Origin: Shigella phage Sf14
Length of the DNA: 64,000 nt
Direction: 5' to 3' (one strand)
Sequence record: MF327003
In this document: one piece after another, positions 19,188 to 64,000 of the stretch
How positions within the stretch are numbered: position 1 is the stretch's first letter
Layout: every line of letters starts with the position of its first letter
Translations under genes and position numbers: made by a program
Notes under the pieces: generated by a model
Seen by the model: the letters and a program-made list of their open reading frames with translations, nothing else
The model's database searches: none
What the model was told of the DNA's origin: nothing

Positions 19188-19192
19188 TTCTA

Positions 19193-19218
19193 AGGCTCCT
19201 TTTTACGGGAGCCTTTTT
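19193..19218. terminator. bidirectional intrinsic terminator between convergent transcription units
   Basis: AGGCTCC...GGGAGCCT stem flanked by A-run upstream and TTTTTGTTT downstream; sits between + strand gene end (19187) and - strand thymidylate synthase end (19223). Confidence 0.65.
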
Positions 19219-22798: not shown

Positions 22799-23179
22799 TT
22801 ATAAACCCATGCAGTGACGATTTTCAATAAAGTATTGAACACCTTTGAAAGACTCACGCATAAAGTTGTCTTTCACATCTTCTACAGTCTCAATACCTTT
22901 GCTATCAAGAAGGTCAACGTTCTGAGTGACCATCTCATCTGCTAATCTGTCATAGTAATCTCCCATAAAATGGTAGTTGTAGTCAACCATCTTATCAGTC
23001 ATTTCTTGAACAGTCTGAGCAGACAACGGTTTAGTCAACTCTCCAGCATTTGAAGCGATTTTCTGTACAATCTTACAAGATTCTAAAGCAACACCATTAA
23101 AGTTTGCTTCAGGCATCTTCATAGCTGCTGCACTAAAACTCATACCAAGAGCAACAATACCAACAAGTAACTTTTTCAT
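22799..23179 (-). CDS. secreted/periplasmic protein, unknown function
   Basis: N-terminal signal peptide MKKLLVGIVALGMSFSAAA; GGAGG RBS. Confidence 0.4.
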   Translation of the reverse strand: MKKLLVGIVALGMSFSAAAMKMPEANFNGVALESCKIVQKIASNAGELTKPLSAQTVQEMTDKMVDYNYHFMGDYYDRLADEMVTQNVDLLDSKGIETVEDVKDNFMRESFKGVQYFIENRHCMGL

Positions 23180-23262: not shown

Positions 23263-23412
23263 TTATACTAAATACATTCTAACTGCTGCATTCACTGCAA
23301 ATGATAACAGAGTAAGGGCTAAGGCTGCTTTGTATGTTATACTTAACAGTTTACTTATGAAGTAAGATAATGATAAAACAACAAAAACAAACAGGATAAT
23401 TGTACTAAACAT
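23263..23412 (-). CDS. small membrane protein candidate (49 aa, below ORF-track cutoff)
   Basis: ATG with AGAGG RBS (5-nt spacing); two hydrophobic segments; read manually from sequence. Confidence 0.3.
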   Translation of the reverse strand: MFSTIILFVFVVLSLSYFISKLLSITYKAALALTLLSFAVNAAVRMYLV

Positions 23413-23420
23413 ACTAACCT

Positions 23421-24521
23421 CTATTCATAGTCTCGAATTACTAGCCCAACAGGGAACTGTAAAGAACCCTTACGAGTCATCTTCTGGAACTGAACCGTTA
23501 AAGGTTTCCCGATAAATTCTTCAGGATGTTCAGCAAGATACTGTTTCTTCTCGTGTGTAGTTTTCCATGAAACATCTACAAAGACGTTAGGAAGAGTCTC
23601 TACAACGAACTTACCATGACCACGTTTATCAGTCTTTACACCAGTTACTTTAAATTCCTGTGTGTGCATCTTCTTGTGCTTAATCAGGAAGTAAGAGCGA
23701 TGACCACACTCATAGAACGAATCTGGTGAGATTGACCGATACATTGCCCCTTCAAACTTGAGTTTAACCCAATTGTCATGAGCATTATCAAATTCTTCCC
23801 AAGAGTTAACACGGATTGTCTGAACAGGTACAACCCTGCAAGCATCACCGAGTTCAACGATTGGTGAATTATCAATAACTTCACGACGCTCAGGCCAAGA
23901 TTTAGTCTTGTCACAGATATCATACCAGTAGAATTTAAGAAGGTGACGGTCTGGATTGTCAGCATTCTTAATCATAGACACAATATCTTCCAAGTCCCAA
24001 CCATGAGCATAAATCTCACCGTCGAAATCTTCAACATCTTTGTGCAGTTTCAGCATAAGAAGAACATCAGGAATCAACTCTACAGGAATGTTGTATACCG
24101 TGTTCTCACGAGAGTATGCTGTAAAACTTTCTGAGTCAGCATCTCTTGAAATCCTGCAACGAACCCCGTCAAGTTTAGGTTGAGCATCGGCAGGGAATAC
24201 CAGATACTTCTTGTGACTTATCTTGGAAGCATCCTGAGCAAGCTGTACACCAACCTTCTCAACATTCTCTGCTTCAGACTTTGTGTAAGCATACCCTTTA
24301 CGGTCAACCTGCTTCTTGTACTTAGCAGCAACTTCAAAGAGAGCTTGCTGTTCAGCATTACGCTCATTCTTCTTACCGATGTTCTTAGGTTCTGCTGTGT
24401 ACTCTTCAAACATCATCTTGCCATTTTCTTTACCATAAGTTGTGACGACTTTATCACCTACAGCAACACATGACCAGACGTTGAAAGAACCATCTTTATT
24501 TTGTTTGTACAGAATTGTCAT
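23421..24521 (-). CDS. ATP-dependent DNA ligase
   Basis: Adenylation motif I KLDG (PKLDGVRCRI) and overall size 366 aa. Confidence 0.65.
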   Translation of the reverse strand: MTILYKQNKDGSFNVWSCVAVGDKVVTTYGKENGKMMFEEYTAEPKNIGKKNERNAEQQALFEVAAKYKKQVDRKGYAYTKSEAENVEKVGVQLAQDASKISHKKYLVFPADAQPKLDGVRCRISRDADSESFTAYSRENTVYNIPVELIPDVLLMLKLHKDVEDFDGEIYAHGWDLEDIVSMIKNADNPDRHLLKFYWYDICDKTKSWPERREVIDNSPIVELGDACRVVPVQTIRVNSWEEFDNAHDNWVKLKFEGAMYRSISPDSFYECGHRSYFLIKHKKMHTQEFKVTGVKTDKRGHGKFVVETLPNVFVDVSWKTTHEKKQYLAEHPEEFIGKPLTVQFQKMTRKGSLQFPVGLVIRDYE

Positions 24522-24612: not shown

Positions 24613-24870
24613 TCATTGCCACTTACCTTTTAAATACACATTTACAACTTGGTGGTCATAGCCATCTTTAAGTTTATGCTTGACCTCTTCAACTCTGTAG
24701 TTCCAATCATTAATCTCAACAGTCTCCCCTTCTCGTGGAATAACTGGATTGCGTTGAGCTACAGTCATAGTGCTGAAGATGTTTTCATACTTATAGATAA
24801 AGTTTACTAGAACCTGCATATCAATATCCTTCATCAAAAACTGTGGTGTGTGACTGACTATTCTTCCCAT
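24613..24870 (-). CDS. hypothetical protein (start uncertain, overlaps lipoprotein gene)
   Basis: 85 aa ORF; internal Met candidates near 24834/24819. Confidence 0.25.
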   Translation of the reverse strand: MGRIVSHTPQFLMKDIDMQVLVNFIYKYENIFSTMTVAQRNPVIPREGETVEINDWNYRVEEVKHKLKDGYDHQVVNVYLKGKWQ

Positions 24871-25066
24871 ACTTGTAAGAAGTTGTCGTCTGAGAATTTG
24901 GGCAGCGAACTACAATAACATCTCTGCTAGTGGCATCACCATTAAGCTTGTAAATCTTACAGTCTTGCATTTCTGGAGGAAGTCTGTAAGAAGCATCCTT
25001 GTTCTCATAAGAAGGGTTGCACCCCACCAGTAGGACCGCTAAAGCTGGTATCAATAATTTTAACAT
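24821..25066 (-). CDS. small lipoprotein
   Basis: Signal peptide with lipobox LLVGC (MLKLLIPALAVLLVGC); GAGAGG RBS. Confidence 0.5.
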   Translation of the reverse strand: MLKLLIPALAVLLVGCNPSYENKDASYRLPPEMQDCKIYKLNGDATSRDVIVVRCPNSQTTTSYKYGKNSQSHTTVFDEGY

Positions 25067-25076
25067 TTTAAACCTC

Positions 25077-25343
25077 TCAATAAAATAAATCTGAAGCTTT
25101 TGAATTTACAGGATTCAAAGAACCTTCGTAATGTTCTTCATAACCCTCTTGGCAGATATTATACAGTTCTTTGAATCGGGTTTCATCAACTGGTTTAACA
25201 TCTTTCTTAGCGCATAAGAAGAGATACCAATCATACCCCAAATCTCTGCACCAAGCCTCTGAGACAAAAGCTATTGATTTGTCTTCGCTCTTGAAGATTA
25301 CTAAAGCTTCTTGCTCTTTATTGCTCATTTTTGGTGTCTCCAA
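25077..25343 (-). CDS. hypothetical protein
   Basis: 88 aa ORF. Confidence 0.3.
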   Translation of the reverse strand: METPKMSNKEQEALVIFKSEDKSIAFVSEAWCRDLGYDWYLFLCAKKDVKPVDETRFKELYNICQEGYEEHYEGSLNPVNSKASDLFY

Positions 25344-25792: not shown

Positions 25793-28492
25793 TTAGTGGA
25801 CTTCAAGCCACGATTTACCAACTTTCCCTGCACCTGTGACCAATGTCTCTTTTCTTAGCCCAAGGTTCTTAGATGCTTGACCATAATACCAGTCAGTTAC
25901 TGCTTTCACATCTGCTGTCATGCTCTCTGGACATTCCCAGCTTGTTTCATCGTGGTAAGCACAGAGTAAGCGAGCACCAATAGCTGGTTTACGACCATTC
26001 AACTTCATCAAACCTTCGTCAATCATACGACGACATGCAAGGTTGATTGCTTCATTCTGAACTTGTGCTTCTGAACCCATCAGCAAATAGTTCAAGAGTT
26101 TGTGTGGAGACTTACACCACAGCCAAGCCCCAGCAACCTTCACAAAACCACCTTTAGAGATTGCAGCAGTCTTACCAAACACCTCTTCAAGTGCTTTCTT
26201 AGTTGCTTTGAAATCAGCTTCCAAGTTGTCTAACAGTTTCTTAATCTTCGGTAAACGCACAAAGTAAGTCTGCTTAGTCAATGCACCTTCCTGAGTAGTT
26301 GCTGCTTTAATTGTTTTAGCAAACTTCTCATCACCTGCACCGAACAACAGGGCATAGATACCATTCTTAGCTTTCTTACGTCCCTTGCTAATCTCATGAA
26401 GAAGATTCTCATCCTGAGTAGCACGACAAGTCAAGATATCTTGCTCATCATTAAGGCTGAAGTAGATACTGTTCAGGGTGTGAGCATCAGTCCCTGAGTA
26501 AACTACGTACAAATCGTTTTCAGAGTCATAACGCAGATACTTGTCAATCTCTGGATTCAGATACTGGTCAAAGTGTTTGCAGTAGTATCTTCCATCCTCT
26601 TGACGAACAAACTCAATCTCTTCTTTACCCTCTGTTACCGCTTTGGTGAAGTCTTTATCACCCATGAAGTTACAGAGTAGTACAAGCTGTGCAGAGTTCA
26701 TATCAACAGATACTACGTTGGTTCCCTCTTCACAAATCCACACTGCCCTCATTGGTTCACCGTACACGGCAGCACCGGAAGGTACGTTCACAATACCATA
26801 CTGAGTCATACGTCCAGTAGAAGTGCCAAACACCATTGCACCTGCACTCAAACGACCATCTGGACGAATCTGGTTCAGCCAACCTTTCTCATCATCCTTT
26901 GAGTTCTCAATAGTCCTGCGTCGGTGCATCAAAGTATAGTACTTTGCAATCTTCTGTCCAAGCTCACCTTCGATTGTATCATAAGAAGATTCTGTAAGCT
27001 TTGGTGAAGTCCTAATCAAGCAAGGCTCAAGCACATCTGTGTACTTCTTAACAGACCAGTTATGCTCAATGTAATAGACGCCTTCATGCTCAATATAGCT
27101 CAACCCACAACGTTCAACCATCTCATCCCACTTAGGATGTTTGCGAATCATCTTTTTATTGTCTTTGAATCTGCAAACCTTGATAGGACGACCATCAGAA
27201 TCTTTTTTATAGTTCCAATCATCAGGAATCCAACCAACAGACTTTAAGTAATCCTTCACCACAGCTACCTGAGTCATTCGTGAAACTTCAAACTCAATTG
27301 GTGTAAATGGTGCATCAATCAAACCAGTGTAGCGACTAGACTCTAACTCGAAGTGGTTAACAACGTGAACATTGTAGTACTTCACAGTTTTCACAGTCTT
27401 AACTGGCTTCCAATCTTTACACTTCTTGCCAATCTTCTCATTCAGTTCATTACAAACTGCACGAGCATCTTTCATTGCTACAAAACCTTCAGGGTACTCT
27501 TCTTTTGTTACCGTGTTAGTTGGAGTGTAGCAGTTGCGTTTCTCAACATTAAAAATCTTTGTAGTTGGCTTTCCATACGGCTTGATAGGGTACTGCTTCA
27601 ACTCACCTTCACGCATCTGTTCACGATACTTTGTCTTAGGGTACTTGGTAATCCTTTTTAAACCGTCAACGTGACCAAATGTATCTACATACTCGTTCCA
27701 AGACTTGGCAAATTCTTCACCTGTAACTTTACCTTTTGTCTTAATAGTTGGTGGAAGGTGTGGTTCAACCTCAGCAGCCAACTCATTAGTTAACTTGTCA
27801 AGTTCTTTAACGTGGAACTGCATAAGTTCTACATCAGCTTTCCAACCGTTGATAGCTTGCTGACTCATCCAGAAGGATGTTTCTTTAGCTCGCATGTAGG
27901 TTTCATAAGTGTCAACACCACACTTCTTAAGCTTGAGGTACTCATTATCAAGAGCACGTTTAGTTTTGGCGTTAATCTTAATATCTTCTACAACACGAGT
28001 AAGAATCTCTGCATTCCAGACACCCCACTCTTCAATCTCTGGTTTACGGACACCTACACGAGCACCCCATGCAGCCAAACCATGAGCACCTTTGTAACCT
28101 TTTGGCGTAGGTCTATCCATCCACTGTACGCGAGATTGGATAAGTGAATCCTGAAAGAAGTCACTCCAAGGCTTACACTTAGGGTTCTCAAAGTTCCACA
28201 GGTCAGGTGCAATGTGATTAAACACCCACCAGTCATAACCCAAACCATTGTGGATGCAAAGGCGTTTAGCTTTCAGTGCAAACTCAACACCTTCACGCAG
28301 ACCACCTTTGATGTATTTTGTATACTTGTGACCAAGAATAGGCTCATCAGTGAAAACCCACACAGCAGGTTCATCACTGTCATCTTTATAGTCTGCGAAA
28401 GCCATTACGTGTGCTTTTGTAAACTCAAGGAGCAACCCATCAGTTTCTGTATCACCAACCAAATGTAATTTTTCGAAATCTACATTGTCCAT
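25793..28492 (-). CDS. DNA polymerase, family A, with N-terminal 3'-5' exonuclease domain
   Basis: Exo I motif DTETDGL near N-terminus; pol motifs RKKAKNGIYALLFGAG (motif B-like) and YHDE (motif C-like); 899 aa. Confidence 0.8.
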   Translation of the reverse strand: MDNVDFEKLHLVGDTETDGLLLEFTKAHVMAFADYKDDSDEPAVWVFTDEPILGHKYTKYIKGGLREGVEFALKAKRLCIHNGLGYDWWVFNHIAPDLWNFENPKCKPWSDFFQDSLIQSRVQWMDRPTPKGYKGAHGLAAWGARVGVRKPEIEEWGVWNAEILTRVVEDIKINAKTKRALDNEYLKLKKCGVDTYETYMRAKETSFWMSQQAINGWKADVELMQFHVKELDKLTNELAAEVEPHLPPTIKTKGKVTGEEFAKSWNEYVDTFGHVDGLKRITKYPKTKYREQMREGELKQYPIKPYGKPTTKIFNVEKRNCYTPTNTVTKEEYPEGFVAMKDARAVCNELNEKIGKKCKDWKPVKTVKTVKYYNVHVVNHFELESSRYTGLIDAPFTPIEFEVSRMTQVAVVKDYLKSVGWIPDDWNYKKDSDGRPIKVCRFKDNKKMIRKHPKWDEMVERCGLSYIEHEGVYYIEHNWSVKKYTDVLEPCLIRTSPKLTESSYDTIEGELGQKIAKYYTLMHRRRTIENSKDDEKGWLNQIRPDGRLSAGAMVFGTSTGRMTQYGIVNVPSGAAVYGEPMRAVWICEEGTNVVSVDMNSAQLVLLCNFMGDKDFTKAVTEGKEEIEFVRQEDGRYYCKHFDQYLNPEIDKYLRYDSENDLYVVYSGTDAHTLNSIYFSLNDEQDILTCRATQDENLLHEISKGRKKAKNGIYALLFGAGDEKFAKTIKAATTQEGALTKQTYFVRLPKIKKLLDNLEADFKATKKALEEVFGKTAAISKGGFVKVAGAWLWCKSPHKLLNYLLMGSEAQVQNEAINLACRRMIDEGLMKLNGRKPAIGARLLCAYHDETSWECPESMTADVKAVTDWYYGQASKNLGLRKETLVTGAGKVGKSWLEVH

Positions 28493-56058: not shown

Positions 56059-56406
56059 ATGACGTTTAAAGAATTTTGTCAAGCAGCTTTTGTAATCATT
56101 TTCTTAACAGGTGTTGGTGCTTGGGGAGGCTACACTTACAAGACCAGCCAAGTTAATGAAAAGGAGCTAACTAACCAGAAACTGGTAAGTGTTGCTAAAG
56201 ATGCTTATCAAGAAGGTTTATCAAATCTTAGCTCCAATTACAAAAATGATTTGAAAGATGTGCTTGCTAAAAACAAACACACCAAAGAGGTATTGAACTA
56301 TGAAAAAACTAAGACAGTCTTTATTAATGATTGTGCTACTGAGCCTTATGTCAGGGTGTTCAACGAGCAAAGTGAGCAGTACCTTCAAAAACTCCCAAGT
56401 AAGTGA
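56059..56406 (+). CDS. i-spanin candidate (Rz-like)
   Basis: N-terminal TM helix (AAFVIIFLTGVGAWGGY) then coiled-coil periplasmic domain; contains embedded lipoprotein ORF. Confidence 0.5.
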   Translation: MTFKEFCQAAFVIIFLTGVGAWGGYTYKTSQVNEKELTNQKLVSVAKDAYQEGLSNLSSNYKNDLKDVLAKNKHTKEVLNYEKTKTVFINDCATEPYVRVFNEQSEQYLQKLPSK

Positions 56407-56566
56407 GAGTGACAAGTATACTCAAGAAGAAGCACGTTATGAGGTTAAAGGCACTAAAGGTGAAGACCTTGCAAGTGCTCTTGAGTTTTATCGTGATGGT
56501 TACTATGAATGTACTATTAAGGCAAACAATTTAATTGATATGATTTTGTTAGGGAATAAGCAGTAA
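56300..56566 (+). CDS. o-spanin candidate (Rz1-like lipoprotein), overlapped with i-spanin gene
   Basis: Starts inside 56059..56406 in another frame; lipoprotein signal MKKLRQSLLMIVLLSLMSGC; AAAGAGG RBS. Confidence 0.5.
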   Translation: MKKLRQSLLMIVLLSLMSGCSTSKVSSTFKNSQVSESDKYTQEEARYEVKGTKGEDLASALEFYRDGYYECTIKANNLIDMILLGNKQ

Positions 56567-60789: not shown

Positions 60790-60797
60790 TAAATTGC

Positions 60798-60879
60798 TTT
60801 ACATGGGGTTTATAGTTAGATAAGATAAGCCCCAGATAAAGAGATTTATCTAAAACTAACCTAAACTGGAGTATCAAAA
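60798..60879 (+). promoter_or_regulatory. type 2 promoter/leader cassette (variant)
   Basis: TTTACATGGGGTTTATAGTTAGATAAGATAAGCCCCAGATAAAGAG...CCTAAACTGGAGTATCAAAAATG. Confidence 0.4.
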
Positions 60880-61287
60880 ATGACTAATGCTAATCACAAA
60901 GAAGTTGCAATTTTGAAAGCACGTTTGACCATTAACCGCATCAACATTGTAACATCAGCAGCACCAGACGAAACTCTGCATAATATCATCGGTAAAATTC
61001 AGGGCGCAGTAGTAGACACAAAACAGCTTAAAGAATCCTTGCAAGATGTAGCAGCAGGGGCTATAATTGACGGTGCTCAATATGAGATGAAGGAAATGCT
61101 GTCAAAGTCAAAAGTAATGAATAAAGAACTTGACTTGAAAATGTTTCGATTTGCTGTTAAAGTGTGGCTATGTGTTGATTTTGATGCAAACTTTGCAATT
61201 GCTGATTTCTTTGCAACATGGTTACAGCGTAACTTACCGGTTGAAGTCTTCCGTGAAATCTGCGATGCAATTTATTCAGAGATTTGA
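60880..61287 (+). CDS. early protein
   Basis: 135 aa. Confidence 0.4.
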   Translation: MTNANHKEVAILKARLTINRINIVTSAAPDETLHNIIGKIQGAVVDTKQLKESLQDVAAGAIIDGAQYEMKEMLSKSKVMNKELDLKMFRFAVKVWLCVDFDANFAIADFFATWLQRNLPVEVFREICDAIYSEI

Positions 61288-61316
61288 TTGACATTGCAAA
61301 AGCATAGTAGTAGAGT
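61288..61316 (+). promoter_or_regulatory. early-type promoter TTGACA-17-TAGAGT (type 1)
   Basis: Consensus -35; followed by the same leader and hairpin as at 60461. Confidence 0.6.
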
Positions 61317-61372
61317 ACTCATCAACGGGGCAAGATAGAAGCCCCAACAATCCTAAACTGGAGAATCTGAAA

Positions 61373-61621
61373 ATGTTTAATATGTTGAATATCCCTGACA
61401 CTTGCCGACTCTTAACACAATTTGATAACCTTGGCAAGCCGTTTTTATATCATATGCCAGATAACACTGCAAAAACTTACAGTTACATTGTAAACCGTTT
61501 TACGGCTTATGGTTCAAAGTATGGCTATAATGTCAAGACTCAAAAAGTGACTTTGTTCACAAGTATTGAAGAGTTACCAACTGTTGCCGTTAAACTAATC
61601 TTTACAAAGAAAACTAAATAA
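61373..61621 (+). CDS. early small protein
   Basis: 82 aa. Confidence 0.4.
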   Translation: MFNMLNIPDTCRLLTQFDNLGKPFLYHMPDNTAKTYSYIVNRFTAYGSKYGYNVKTQKVTLFTSIEELPTVAVKLIFTKKTK

Positions 61622-61626
61622 AGTCC

Positions 61627-61705
61627 TTTACATGGGGTTTAAAAGCTAGTATCTTAAGCCCCAGATAAAGAGCTTTACCAACAATCCTAAACTGGAGAAT
61701 CTAAA
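61627..61705 (+). promoter_or_regulatory. type 2 promoter/leader cassette
   Basis: TTTACATGGGGTTTAAAAGCTAGTATCTTAAGCCCCAGATAAAGAGCTTTACCAACAATCCTAAACTGGAGAATCTAAAATG. Confidence 0.45.
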
Positions 61706-62263
61706 ATGAAATGCTTCCACGGTACTACACAAGAAAACTTTGTAAACCTTATTAATGGCGGTGATAAACCATCAGGAGTCTGGAATTGCTCTGATATGGA
61801 TGGATGTTTTTATGTCTACCCTGTTAGCAAGTTCTATGATGTAGAAAATCTGGATGACGAACAAATCATAGATGAAGGTATTAAAAACGCGCTTGATAGC
61901 GCAAGCATTACAGCAGCCTATCAAATGAAGTCACAAAAGCTTGTTATCTTGGAACTGGATATTCCAGAAGATGATTTACAAGATGACTGGAGCTGTGAGA
62001 ACATGAGCGACGTAGCAAGCTTTACAGAATATTTCGATAAAGAATGGATTAAAAAGGTTTACACAACTGAATTTAATGCTATGTATGCGCCTTTCTTTGT
62101 CCCTAACCTGAATAATAGGAACTTGGGTTATATACCAGATGAATTACGCAACATTGCGGCAATAGTCCAACGTAGTGATGAGATGAGCAATGTATATTGT
62201 GATATCTTTGACACAATGCAATTCAACGTAACAGAAACGGCTATAAACGACTTAACAGCATAA
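61706..62263 (+). CDS. early protein, unknown
   Basis: 185 aa, acidic. Confidence 0.4.
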   Translation: MKCFHGTTQENFVNLINGGDKPSGVWNCSDMDGCFYVYPVSKFYDVENLDDEQIIDEGIKNALDSASITAAYQMKSQKLVILELDIPEDDLQDDWSCENMSDVASFTEYFDKEWIKKVYTTEFNAMYAPFFVPNLNNRNLGYIPDELRNIAAIVQRSDEMSNVYCDIFDTMQFNVTETAINDLTA

Positions 62264-62326
62264 ACGATAGAATCATACCAGTTCACTAGAAAAGCCCCGC
62301 ATAGGGGCTTACAAGAGGCTTAAAAC

Positions 62327-62557
62327 ATGCTTACTACAATCTATCTTATTCTATCTATCTGCAATGGTTCACAGTGTGACTTTAAAGGTTTAGAAGAGTT
62401 TACAGGTAGCGAAAATAATGCTATTGTTGCTTGTCAGATAGCAAGGCAAGATTACCCTGCATCAGATGATATCCAATGTTACTATAAATCAGAAGATGAT
62501 TATGGCATTTACTTTGACAGTGTGAATGGTGATTATGAAATTCTTATAGAAAAGTAG
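62327..62557 (+). CDS. early small protein
   Basis: 76 aa; preceded by hairpin AAAGCCCC-GCATA-GGGGCTT and AGAGG RBS. Confidence 0.35.
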   Translation: MLTTIYLILSICNGSQCDFKGLEEFTGSENNAIVACQIARQDYPASDDIQCYYKSEDDYGIYFDSVNGDYEILIEK

Positions 62558-62586
62558 TTGACACTGAAAACGCAAACAAGTAAAGT
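62558..62586 (+). promoter_or_regulatory. early-type promoter TTGACA-17-TAAAGT (type 1)
   Basis: Followed by ATTCATCAACGGGAAGGAAACTTCCCC...CCTAAACTGGAGAATCAAAAATG. Confidence 0.6.
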
Positions 62587-62646
62587 ATTCATCAACGGGA
62601 AGGAAACTTCCCCACTAAACAAAATTCCTAAACTGGAGAATCAAAA

Positions 62647-62868
62647 ATGTTGCAAGTTCTTAACGTAAAAACCATTGATTTTAAATTCTCAAATGTTCGT
62701 CGTACCTATTTACAGCCATTTAATAACCCTGTTAGAATTCCCAACGATGACGCTAAAAAGTTGATTGATGAAATTCTAGCTAATGGCGGTTATCTGGCTA
62801 GTCATAAGCAGTATAATGATGAGGCTGGAAGCCTGATAAATGAGTTTACATATTATTACTACAAATAA
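62647..62868 (+). CDS. early small protein
   Basis: 73 aa. Confidence 0.4.
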   Translation: MLQVLNVKTIDFKFSNVRRTYLQPFNNPVRIPNDDAKKLIDEILANGGYLASHKQYNDEAGSLINEFTYYYYK

Positions 62869-62880
62869 CTAATAAAGTCC

Positions 62881-62959
62881 TTTACATGGGGTTTATAGTT
62901 AGATAAGATAAGCCCCAGATAAAGAGCTTTACCAACAATCCTAAACTGGAGAATCTAAA
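62881..62959 (+). promoter_or_regulatory. type 2 promoter/leader cassette
   Basis: Same element as at 60798 and 61627. Confidence 0.45.
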
Positions 62960-63157
62960 ATGTTATCACTGATGCAAAAACTTTCTACCTTGTGGTGTTT
63001 AAAAGGTGTAGAGTGTAACCTTAACATGGAAGGTTCAAAGATAGACCTAAAAATAGTATACAATGGAGAAATACTATTCTCACAGAATAGCAGTCATCCA
63101 CACTTCAAAGATAATGCAATTATGGCCGTGAATAATCTGATGGATAGAATTTATTAA
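62960..63157 (+). CDS. early small protein
   Basis: 65 aa. Confidence 0.35.
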   Translation: MLSLMQKLSTLWCLKGVECNLNMEGSKIDLKIVYNGEILFSQNSSHPHFKDNAIMAVNNLMDRIY

Positions 63158-63162
63158 AGTGC

Positions 63163-63242
63163 TTTACATGGGGTTTAAAAGCTAGTATCTTAAGCCCCAG
63201 ATAAAGAGCTTTACCAACAATCCTAAACTGGAGAATCTGAAA
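63163..63242 (+). promoter_or_regulatory. type 2 promoter/leader cassette
   Basis: TTTACATGGGGTTTAAAAGCTAGTATCTTAAGCCCCAGATAAAGAGCTTTACCAACAATCCTAAACTGGAGAATCTGAAAATG. Confidence 0.45.
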
Positions 63243-63584
63243 ATGGCCTATGTAACAATTATCACCGATAAAGAAAATTCGTCATGGTCTACCCAAGTTA
63301 ACGACAAAATGAAACCTATGCAGTGTCTCAAGTACTTTGAGCAATGGAACAGGGGAGAAGATGTAAGCCCCTTTCAAGTGATGCAGATTGTACATGTTGA
63401 CAATGAAGGGAATAAAACTACCCTTAACACTGAATACTATGCTACACGTTTCGAAACTCGCAAATCAGCTATGCAGGAGTTAAGAGAAAAGGGATATAGT
63501 CACATTGCCGCGCTCATTTGGTCTGATTTGCTTAAAAAACAGTCATTAACCTATGTTAAGCCAGAAAAAATCTTTATAAGCTAA
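63243..63584 (+). CDS. early protein, copy 1 of tandemly duplicated gene
   Basis: 113 aa; identical to product of 63659..64000. Confidence 0.45.
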   Translation: MAYVTIITDKENSSWSTQVNDKMKPMQCLKYFEQWNRGEDVSPFQVMQIVHVDNEGNKTTLNTEYYATRFETRKSAMQELREKGYSHIAALIWSDLLKKQSLTYVKPEKIFIS

Positions 63585-63658
63585 TCAACAACTTATAAAA
63601 ATCTTTTGAAAAACAGATAAAGAGCTTTACCAACAATCCTAAACTGGAGAATCTGAAA

Positions 63659-64000
63659 ATGGCCTATGTAACAATTATCACCGATAAAGAAAATTCGTCA
63701 TGGTCTACCCAAGTTAACGACAAAATGAAACCTATGCAGTGTCTCAAGTACTTTGAGCAATGGAACAGGGGAGAAGATGTAAGCCCCTTTCAAGTGATGC
63801 AGATTGTACATGTTGACAATGAAGGGAATAAAACTACCCTTAACACTGAATACTATGCTACACGTTTCGAAACTCGCAAATCAGCTATGCAGGAGTTAAG
63901 AGAAAAGGGATATAGTCACATTGCCGCGCTCATTTGGTCTGATTTGCTTAAAAAACAGTCATTAACCTATGTTAAGCCAGAAAAAATCTTTATAAGCTAA
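63659..64000 (+). CDS. early protein, copy 2 of tandemly duplicated gene
   Basis: Translation identical to 63243..63584; stop codon is the last 3 bases of the window. Confidence 0.45.
   Translation: MAYVTIITDKENSSWSTQVNDKMKPMQCLKYFEQWNRGEDVSPFQVMQIVHVDNEGNKTTLNTEYYATRFETRKSAMQELREKGYSHIAALIWSDLLKKQSLTYVKPEKIFIS

Follow-up and report, generated by a model that had tools for sequence, protein, structure and literature searches.

A small open reading frame (ORF) in the window, that is, in the whole stretch of 64,000 nucleotides of Shigella phage Sf14 analysed here, is best explained, judging from its sequence, as the gene of a bona fide lipoprotein that is processed by SPase II and belongs to the phage-restricted family DUF4884. 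For its role we tentatively propose a receptor-independent effector acting in the envelope of the infected cell. Superinfection exclusion, the function put forward in the original prediction, is a plausible hypothesis in such a receptor-independent form rather than in a form resembling that of the T5 lipoprotein Llp. DUF4884 is a large, phage-restricted and uncharacterised family, and public records already list the gene itself, as a hypothetical protein.

The lipoprotein gene and its genomic setting

The window originates from a Felix O1-like myovirus of the Ounavirinae (Mooglevirus). Over 4 kb surrounding the lipoprotein ORF, it showed 99.8% identity to Shigella phage Sf16, where the ORF corresponds to gp75, annotated as “hypothetical protein”; orthologues are Michonne gp43, Moogle gp40, and FO1a gp90. 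Its exact position, as given in the original prediction, was upheld by the ORF list and the sequence (Table 1), and translation revealed a product of 81 amino acids, MLKLLIPALAVLLVGCNPSYENKDASYRLPPEMQDCKIYKLNGDATSRDVIVVRCPNSQTTTSYKYGKNSQSHTTVFDEGY. In the Michonne record, a ribosome-binding site is annotated at the place equivalent to the GAGAGG motif of the window.

Table 1. Positions in the window of the lipoprotein gene, its elements and further loci discussed in the text
Feature	Position	Strand	Remarks
Lipoprotein CDS	24821..25066	minus	complete, 81 codons + TGA; from ORF list and sequence
Start codon ATG	25066-25064	minus	
Stop codon TGA	24823-24821	minus	
Shine-Dalgarno-like GAGAGG	25073..25078	minus	6 nt 5' of the ATG; read from the sequence
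Signal peptide, residues 1-15, MLKLLIPALAVLLVG	25022..25066	minus	n-region with K3 and 11-residue hydrophobic core; from the translation
Lipobox L13-V14-G15-C16	25019..25030	minus	match to the PROSITE-type rule
Mature domain C16-Y81, 66 aa	24824..25021	minus	linker of ~10 residues, then predicted all-beta domain
C36	24959-24961	minus	candidate disulfide partner of C55
C55	24902-24904	minus	candidate disulfide partner of C36
DNA ligase gene	23421-24521	minus	
DNA polymerase gene	25793-28492	minus	
Bidirectional terminator	19192-19215		closes the minus-strand cluster
i-spanin gene	56059-56403		99% identical to annotated Michonne spanin
o-spanin gene	56300-56563		98% identical to annotated Michonne spanin; overlaps the i-spanin gene

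The N-terminus of the product satisfies the lipoprotein rule of the PROSITE PS51257 type, with a lysine within the first seven residues (K3), uncharged residues from I6 to V11, and the sequence L12-L13-V14-G15-C16. Its hydropathy reaches a Kyte-Doolittle maximum of 2.02 (17 residues) at residue 1. The claim of a canonical lipoprotein signal peptide, consisting of K3, a hydrophobic core, and the lipobox L-V-G-C16, held true, with the cysteine kept across relatives, and so did that of a mature domain of about 65 residues with further cysteines, these being C36 and C55. C16 is predicted to be the diacylglyceryl-modified first residue of the mature protein. In E. coli, the residue at position +2 directs the sorting of lipoproteins by the Lol system, and with the asparagine found there the protein is expected to be sent to the outer membrane of enteric hosts.

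The lipobox pattern alone does not go beyond chance, since shuffled windows match it as well. Of the window's 575 ORFs that start with ATG and reach 50 aa or more, only two were recovered under the PROSITE-type rule, namely this ORF and the o-spanin, while each shuffled window gave zero or one match, or about one match per two shuffled 64-kb windows. This frequency would suit a chance ORF or an annotation artefact carrying a fortuitous lipobox, but the conservation data refute such a reading and leave it with practically no probability. Across the Ounavirinae, the mature part displayed a dN/dS of 0-0.07; between the window and Michonne, dN was 0 at a dS of 0.44, and between Mooglevirus and Felixounavirus dN/dS was about 0.05 despite saturation of the synonymous sites. 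Synteny across the Ounavirinae, the presence of a ribosome-binding site, and the 517 related clusters with their invariant cysteines described below likewise speak against an artefact. Because the mature domain is conserved under strong purifying selection, we count the gene as real, and its sequence evolution supports the view of a translated gene under strong constraint. The signal peptide, on the other hand, diverges almost freely between genera (pN ~0.5) and keeps its hydrophobic character and the lipobox.

The original assignment to the replication module was confirmed as well: the gene is the third of five small genes that separate the DNA polymerase gene from the DNA ligase gene, within a cluster of genes all on the minus strand, which carries on beyond the ligase with an HTH regulator, dihydrofolate reductase, and thymidylate synthase up to a bidirectional terminator, with the holin and the late genes on its other side. 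As the preceding gene stops 10 nt upstream of the ORF and the ORF shares 14 nt at its 3' end with the start of the following gene, it is embedded in a tightly packed cluster. Citrobacter phage Michonne, the Felix O1 strain FO1a (a Salmonella phage), and the Escherichia phages warpig and LMP34 share this gene order. The immediate surroundings, made up of small hypothetical genes, DNA polymerase, and ligase, are neither a lysis nor a tail module, and the tail fibre genes are located more than 5 kb away on the opposite strand. A search of the window with the family HMM revealed this single copy only. A scan for promoters and terminators gave signals at chance level, so that the timing of expression follows from gene position only, and our literature search found no Felixounavirus transcriptome; by its position, the gene is presumably transcribed together with the replication genes and before the late genes.

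The DUF4884 family

The protein matched a single PHROG, phrog_902 of unknown function (E 6.7e-17 over residues 1-76), which was also matched by all other members of an alignment of 94 sequences, comprising the query and 93 relatives. Every homologue recovered carries a precomputed match to PF16225, i.e., DUF4884. Our local Pfam-A scan of the query gave no PF16225 match even at E <= 10, and the Pfam assignment thus rests on the precomputed matches of the homologues. The local Pfam and NCBIfam scans yielded nothing significant, the nearest being Zn_ribbon_InsA (E 0.09) and TrbK (E 0.03, in the signal-peptide region of one homologue). With HMMER, 517 clusters (50% identity) were recovered at E <= 0.001 among 1.84 billion representative proteins, nearly all with a length of 75-120 aa. 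A literature search found no functional study of DUF4884, the family being named in passing only. Since DUF4884 has no assigned function, membership in the family explains nothing about the role of the protein.

Residue frequencies were taken from an alignment of 161 sequences, consisting of the query and 160 recovered relatives. The lipobox cysteine C16 and C55 are conserved in 99% of them, C36 in 100%, and P30 in 98%, followed by D35, K37, V52-V53-R54, P56-N57-S58, T60-T62, and G67-K68 with 70-94%. The family signature can be written as YxLPxELxDCK[IV]Y ... VVRCPNSxTTT ... GK, corresponding to Y27-x-L-P30-x-E-L-x-D35-C36-K-[IV]-Y39 ... V52-V-R-C55-P-N-S-x-T-T-T62 ... G67-K68 in the numbering of the query, and C36 and C55 are spaced by 17-20 residues across the family. 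The signal peptide is a family-wide trait, with K or R in column 2/3 and hydrophobic residues in columns 4-13; 149 of the 160 relatives carry a lipobox-like motif, with G/A in 96% of the 161 aligned sequences at position -1 and L in 75% at position -3. The +2 residue varies between N, S, D, and E, with Asp in about 14-16%. Due to this variation, the membrane of residence may differ between members, and a location in the outer membrane may not be universal.

AlphaFold2 predicted five strands (residues 19-22, 37-42, 50-54, 60-66, and 69-75) with a pLDDT of 68, and a second run (pLDDT 62) showed the same topology. In this model C36 and C55 flank a predicted beta-hairpin, which makes an intradomain disulfide the natural reading; it probably staples an all-beta domain of about 50 residues, which would hang by a tether of 10 residues from the periplasmic side of the membrane. 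A structure search of the PDB with the model returned no similar solved structure, sequence and profile searches of the PDB chains gave no match, and a Foldseek comparison with viral models matched only other unannotated phage “lipoproteins”. With a pLDDT of 62-68 and no known fold matched, the model provides no mechanistic clue.

By tblastn, about 570-600 phage records were found to carry DUF4884, among them myo-, sipho-, and podophages with hosts in the Enterobacterales, Vibrio, Aeromonas, and Acinetobacter. Besides the Ounavirinae, carriers include a Klebsiella phage of the Stephanstirmvirinae, Cronobacter CR3-type phages, the T4-like Acinetobacter phage Acj61 (Straboviridae), an N4-like Vibrio phage (Schitoviridae), Acinetobacter Saclayvirus, Acinetobacter myoviruses of 44-55 kb, Vibrio phages of 114 kb, an Aeromonas phage, and jumbo phages (Asteriusvirus, Eneladusvirus) of E. 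coli, Salmonella, Erwinia, Serratia, and Yersinia. To our knowledge, the named lineages are lytic. The copy of Acj61 has its best matches in other Acinetobacter phages with unrelated genome sizes, a first hint of grouping by host. An entry in a published annotation table adds a DUF4884 protein in a T1-like phage of 49.9 kb. Outside phages, a strict DNA motif, which recognises 17% of the members, had no match in 185,579 bacterial and archaeal species (one genome each), the DNA of the gene had none in 5,426 complete E. coli genomes at a search reach of about 65-70% identity, and the family consensus matched one of 72,556 plasmids. This near-absence from the bacterial genomes searched indicates that DUF4884 is essentially a phage family.

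The position of the gene was compared across these lineages. In Vibrio phage D17, it lies between the genes for an origin-binding protein/helicase and ligase, and in Acj61 directly upstream of spackle (phrog_1586, E 9e-17), gene 61.1, and the primase gene 61. The latter arrangement, with an exclusion gene inside a replication cluster, is the situation that the original prediction had envisaged. No conserved partner gene was found among the neighbours compared across lineages or in metagenomic contexts, which implies that the protein acts alone. ORFs of about 120 aa located downstream in several lineages were considered as partners and rejected, since by eye they showed no relation among themselves, nor did any of them resemble the neighbours in the window. 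Small membrane or secreted proteins are encoded within a few genes of DUF4884 in most lineages; this is weak evidence, as early regions commonly hold such genes.

Comparison with receptor-masking lipoproteins and spanins

Blocking of the phage's own receptor was one of the mechanisms originally suggested for the lipoprotein, and this part of the prediction is disfavoured. In exclusion of the Llp, Cor, and Rtp45 type, the lipoprotein would attach, from the periplasm, to the outer-membrane protein that the phage itself uses as receptor and block adsorption allosterically. Llp binds FhuA on its periplasmic side, and Rtp45 of phage Rtp binds LptDE, reportedly forming a beta-sheet with LptD (PMC12685063). 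T5-type receptor-binding proteins have been described as encoded with cognate exclusion proteins, and in Drexlerviridae the genes of the receptor-masking lipoproteins adjoin that of the receptor-binding protein (PMC8594841). Llp is mentioned in a bioRxiv preprint as being made shortly after infection.

The size class, the lipoprotein anchoring, and the predicted outer-membrane sorting of our protein are those of this group. T5 Llp (PDB 7QJF, 8A60), which comes from a virulent phage and has a 77-aa precursor, is likewise a small disulfide-containing lipoprotein with its anchor in the outer membrane, and the short N-terminal sequence DCKIY resembles KCEAYY of Llp. A first hhalign comparison even gave a probability of 66.8% for Llp, but this was mostly due to the signal peptide, and homology was rejected as the value fell to 1.3% (10 columns) on the mature domains. 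Homology to Cor (T1/phi80/N15; phrog_1119), a small lipoprotein of similar length, was rejected too: 23 of the 94 family members showed weak matches to its PHROG (best E 7.8e-5), the query itself showed none, and without signal peptides the matches vanished, leaving 0.3% against the Cor alignment. The known exclusion lipoproteins are, however, mutually dissimilar, Cor and Llp reaching an hhalign probability of just 2.4%, so that missing homology does not exclude a masking mechanism. The cysteines also differ in their arrangement, being 17-20 residues apart in DUF4884, whereas in Llp and Cor the second one is C-terminal, about 48 residues from the first.

Further differences concern genome organisation and receptors. 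The DUF4884 gene never adjoins a receptor-binding or tail-fibre gene, unlike cor of T1, which is found in the tail module just after the tail genes, or the loci of the Drexlerviridae; in Sf14, it is located between polymerase and ligase, far from the tail genes. While Llp is tied to FhuA and to a receptor-binding locus, the reported receptor of Felix O1-type phages is LPS, not a protein (PMC8594841). Moreover, the domain occurs with the same near-invariant residues in lineages with unrelated receptors and hosts. Rtp45 (PDB 9RPS), a lipoprotein of about 6 kDa, is comparable in that it acts where the outer membrane meets the periplasm, and its beta-sheet mode of binding LptD could be open to the all-beta mini-domain of DUF4884 too; it belongs, however, to phages with LptD as receptor, and nothing links the Sf14-type phage to LptD. 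The lack of matches, by sequence or fold, to the PDB entries searched also argues against receptor masking. Taking together the distance from the tail fibres, the use of LPS, and the many receptors among the carriers, we regard receptor masking as quite unlikely.

A second group of small outer-membrane phage lipoproteins comprises the Rz1-type o-spanins, and the DUF4884 product might be thought of as such a subunit or as a second spanin in lysis. A distant homologue in Vibrio phage PhiImVa-1 is annotated as “putative spanin”, and eight of the 94 family members weakly matched an Rz-like spanin PHROG. Among the matches shown individually, however, Acj61p058 pointed to Cor and the PhiImVa-1 protein to the Rz-like PHROG, and the latter match comprised only the N-terminal 41 residues including the signal peptide. 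The gene of an Rz1-type o-spanin overlaps or neighbours that of its i-spanin; the DUF4884 ORF neither overlaps nor borders on any i-spanin-like gene, no neighbour has an N-terminal transmembrane segment, and the gene belongs to the replication cluster, away from the lysis genes. An identity as o-spanin was rejected, given that the window already has its own overlapping i-spanin/o-spanin pair (56059-56566), and a spanin function of any kind appears highly improbable.

Possible roles in the infected cell envelope

In the receptor-independent reading that we tentatively favour, the small domain would bind something that many Gammaproteobacteria or many incoming phages share. The target could be a conserved constituent of the periplasm or the outer membrane, or the apparatus with which a second phage penetrates the periplasm, and binding would shield the infected cell against secondary infection or lysis from without. 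The occurrence of the same near-invariant residues whatever the host or phage lineage points to a conserved target or to a conserved scaffold. However, these residues, largely of structural types (Cys, Pro, Gly, and turn residues), could be purely structural and the binding surface variable, with a lineage-specific target; the functional surface may then be the variable hairpin tip together with the C-terminal tail, with targets differing between lineages. General exclusion or protection against lysis from without, brought about through one conserved envelope component or through the periplasmic entry apparatus of incoming phages, is in itself on the unlikely side.

Such an action would be functionally closer to that of T4 Spackle than to the receptor-masking Llp, Cor, and Rtp45. 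Spackle is periplasmic and functions in superinfection exclusion, and RI and Spackle act in lysis inhibition as well (bioRxiv 10.1101/2025.11.12.688109). Like the presumed DUF4884 effector, Spackle (gp61.3; phrog_1586) is an early, small, envelope-targeted protein encoded in a replication cluster, and its periplasmic action is independent of the receptor. In contrast, it is not a lipoprotein, the Acj61 copy having no lipobox, and there is no sequence relation, as the query matches phrog_902 only and not phrog_1586. The occurrence of both proteins in Acj61 means that they are not simple substitutes. A block at the periplasmic or DNA-entry step is plausible, the adjacency of DUF4884 and spackle in Acj61, a single case, giving it weak support.

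Alternatively, the protein might be a periplasm-facing lipoprotein with a role other than exclusion in the infected cell, for example, a factor that adjusts the timing of lysis (an antiholin, a regulator of endolysin or spanin, or a sensor in lysis inhibition), an inhibitor of a host peptidoglycan hydrolase or protease, or a silencer of an envelope-stress or envelope-located defence pathway. A conserved, phage-restricted single gene of the early region without a conserved partner fits these roles equally well, the periplasmic early proteins RI and Spackle of T4 serve lysis inhibition as well as exclusion (bioRxiv 10.1101/2025.11.12.688109), and, going by the annotation of its relative Michonne, the phage has genes of the rIIA/rIIB type. 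Against this stand the absence of linkage to the holin (~18.8-19.2 kb), the spanin pair (56.1-56.6 kb), and the endolysin, which lies outside the window, as well as the lack of any match in the PADLOC defence-system library and of any known inhibitor fold. Taken as a whole, this set of roles is possible, albeit rather doubtful.

As it stands, the lipoprotein gene is an ordinary hypothetical gene, already catalogued, that lends itself well to experiments. Lytic phages secure the cell they infect by means of small early proteins directed to the envelope, and few mechanisms are known, namely those of Llp, Cor, Rtp45, Spackle, and Imm. For an uncharacterised phage gene, DUF4884 is unusually widespread, with more than 500 clusters, all three tail morphotypes, and hosts from Vibrio to Acinetobacter. 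If it proved to be a general factor of exclusion or envelope takeover, this would matter for the design of phage cocktails, because one phage could exclude others, and it would draw attention to a conserved site in the envelope of Gram-negative bacteria that drugs could target. A receptor-independent action of DUF4884 would then represent a new mechanistic class beside Spackle, Imm, and the receptor-masking lipoproteins.

Lipoprotein signals and small exported proteins in the window

Besides the ORF of the DUF4884 protein, just one ORF of the window carries a lipoprotein signal, that of the o-spanin, in which it reads MKKLRQSLLMIVLLSLMSGC. The o-spanin and i-spanin genes overlap, the pair spanning positions 56059-56566 on the plus strand, and both are nearly identical to their counterparts in Citrobacter phage Michonne. 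Within the replication-type cluster, a small, mostly hydrophobic protein of 49 aa is encoded immediately after the DNA ligase gene; it corresponds to gp47 in the annotation of Michonne, and no gene is annotated at this site in the record of Shigella phage Sf16. The 126-aa protein, carrying a classical cleavable signal peptide (MKKLLVGIVALGMSFSAAA), is predicted to be a second exported protein of this cluster.

Features of the window other than the DUF4884 gene
Feature	Position	Strand	Assignment
i-spanin	56059-56403	+	99% identical to Michonne gp139
o-spanin	56300-56563	+	98% identical to Michonne gp138
49-aa ORF	23263-23412	-	phrog_22006, E 2e-7
126-aa protein	22799-23179	-	phrog_4332, function unknown
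Perfect bidirectional stem-loop terminator	19192-19215		Point of gene convergence

At the terminator, the plus-strand late (holin) genes meet the minus-strand nucleotide-metabolism/replication cluster. The end of the window (about 60790-64000) runs on to coordinate 1 of Sf16, whose record is linear, showing that permutation or joining differs between the two sequences. An intergenic repeat of about 90-98 nt is present in several copies (89-99% identical) in this early region, which, compared with Sf16, also appears to contain a duplication of some 400 bp.

Assignment and annotation of family members

PF16225 (DUF4884) was given to every homologue by precomputed annotations. With the threshold relaxed to E <= 10, a local Pfam-A scan of the window's DUF4884 protein and four homologues still gave no PF16225 match; the local copy of Pfam-A may lack this model or contain a changed version of it. 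In Escherichia phage warpig, the orthologue is intact in the DNA (about 2430-2700 of its locus, L017) and unannotated, the record listing instead an overlapping ORF, warpig_4 (2610-2912). A distant member in the Vibrio phage PhiImVa-1 (Schitoviridae; locus L010, 2956-3240) is labelled 'putative spanin', which is probably a misannotation: no i-spanin-like partner adjoins the gene in this locus, and the match to the Rz-like spanin PHROG comprises only the N-terminal 41 residues, signal peptide included.

Neighboring genes and a plasmid record

In Acinetobacter phage Acj61, the DUF4884 homologue Acj61p058 lies directly upstream of the spackle homologue Acj61p057 (locus L011, 2956-3546), the pair being located within the primase (gene 61) cluster. 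A further small predicted lipoprotein (MKYFAIALALLVSSGC...) is encoded four genes upstream (1622-1897). Escherichia phage PBECO4 encodes a second putative small lipoprotein of 91 aa (phrog_31263; locus L006, 3572-3847) two genes downstream of its DUF4884 gene. This protein is not detected by the family HMM (E > 1), and its 'YECPG' cysteine context is similar to that of DUF4884.

Among 72,556 plasmid records, a single one revealed a DUF4884 match, namely the 113 kb Acinetobacter baumannii 'plasmid' NZ_CP062920.1 (109453-109605). Being similar in size to the family-carrying Acinetobacter phages (103-110 kb), this record may represent a phage or phage-plasmid.
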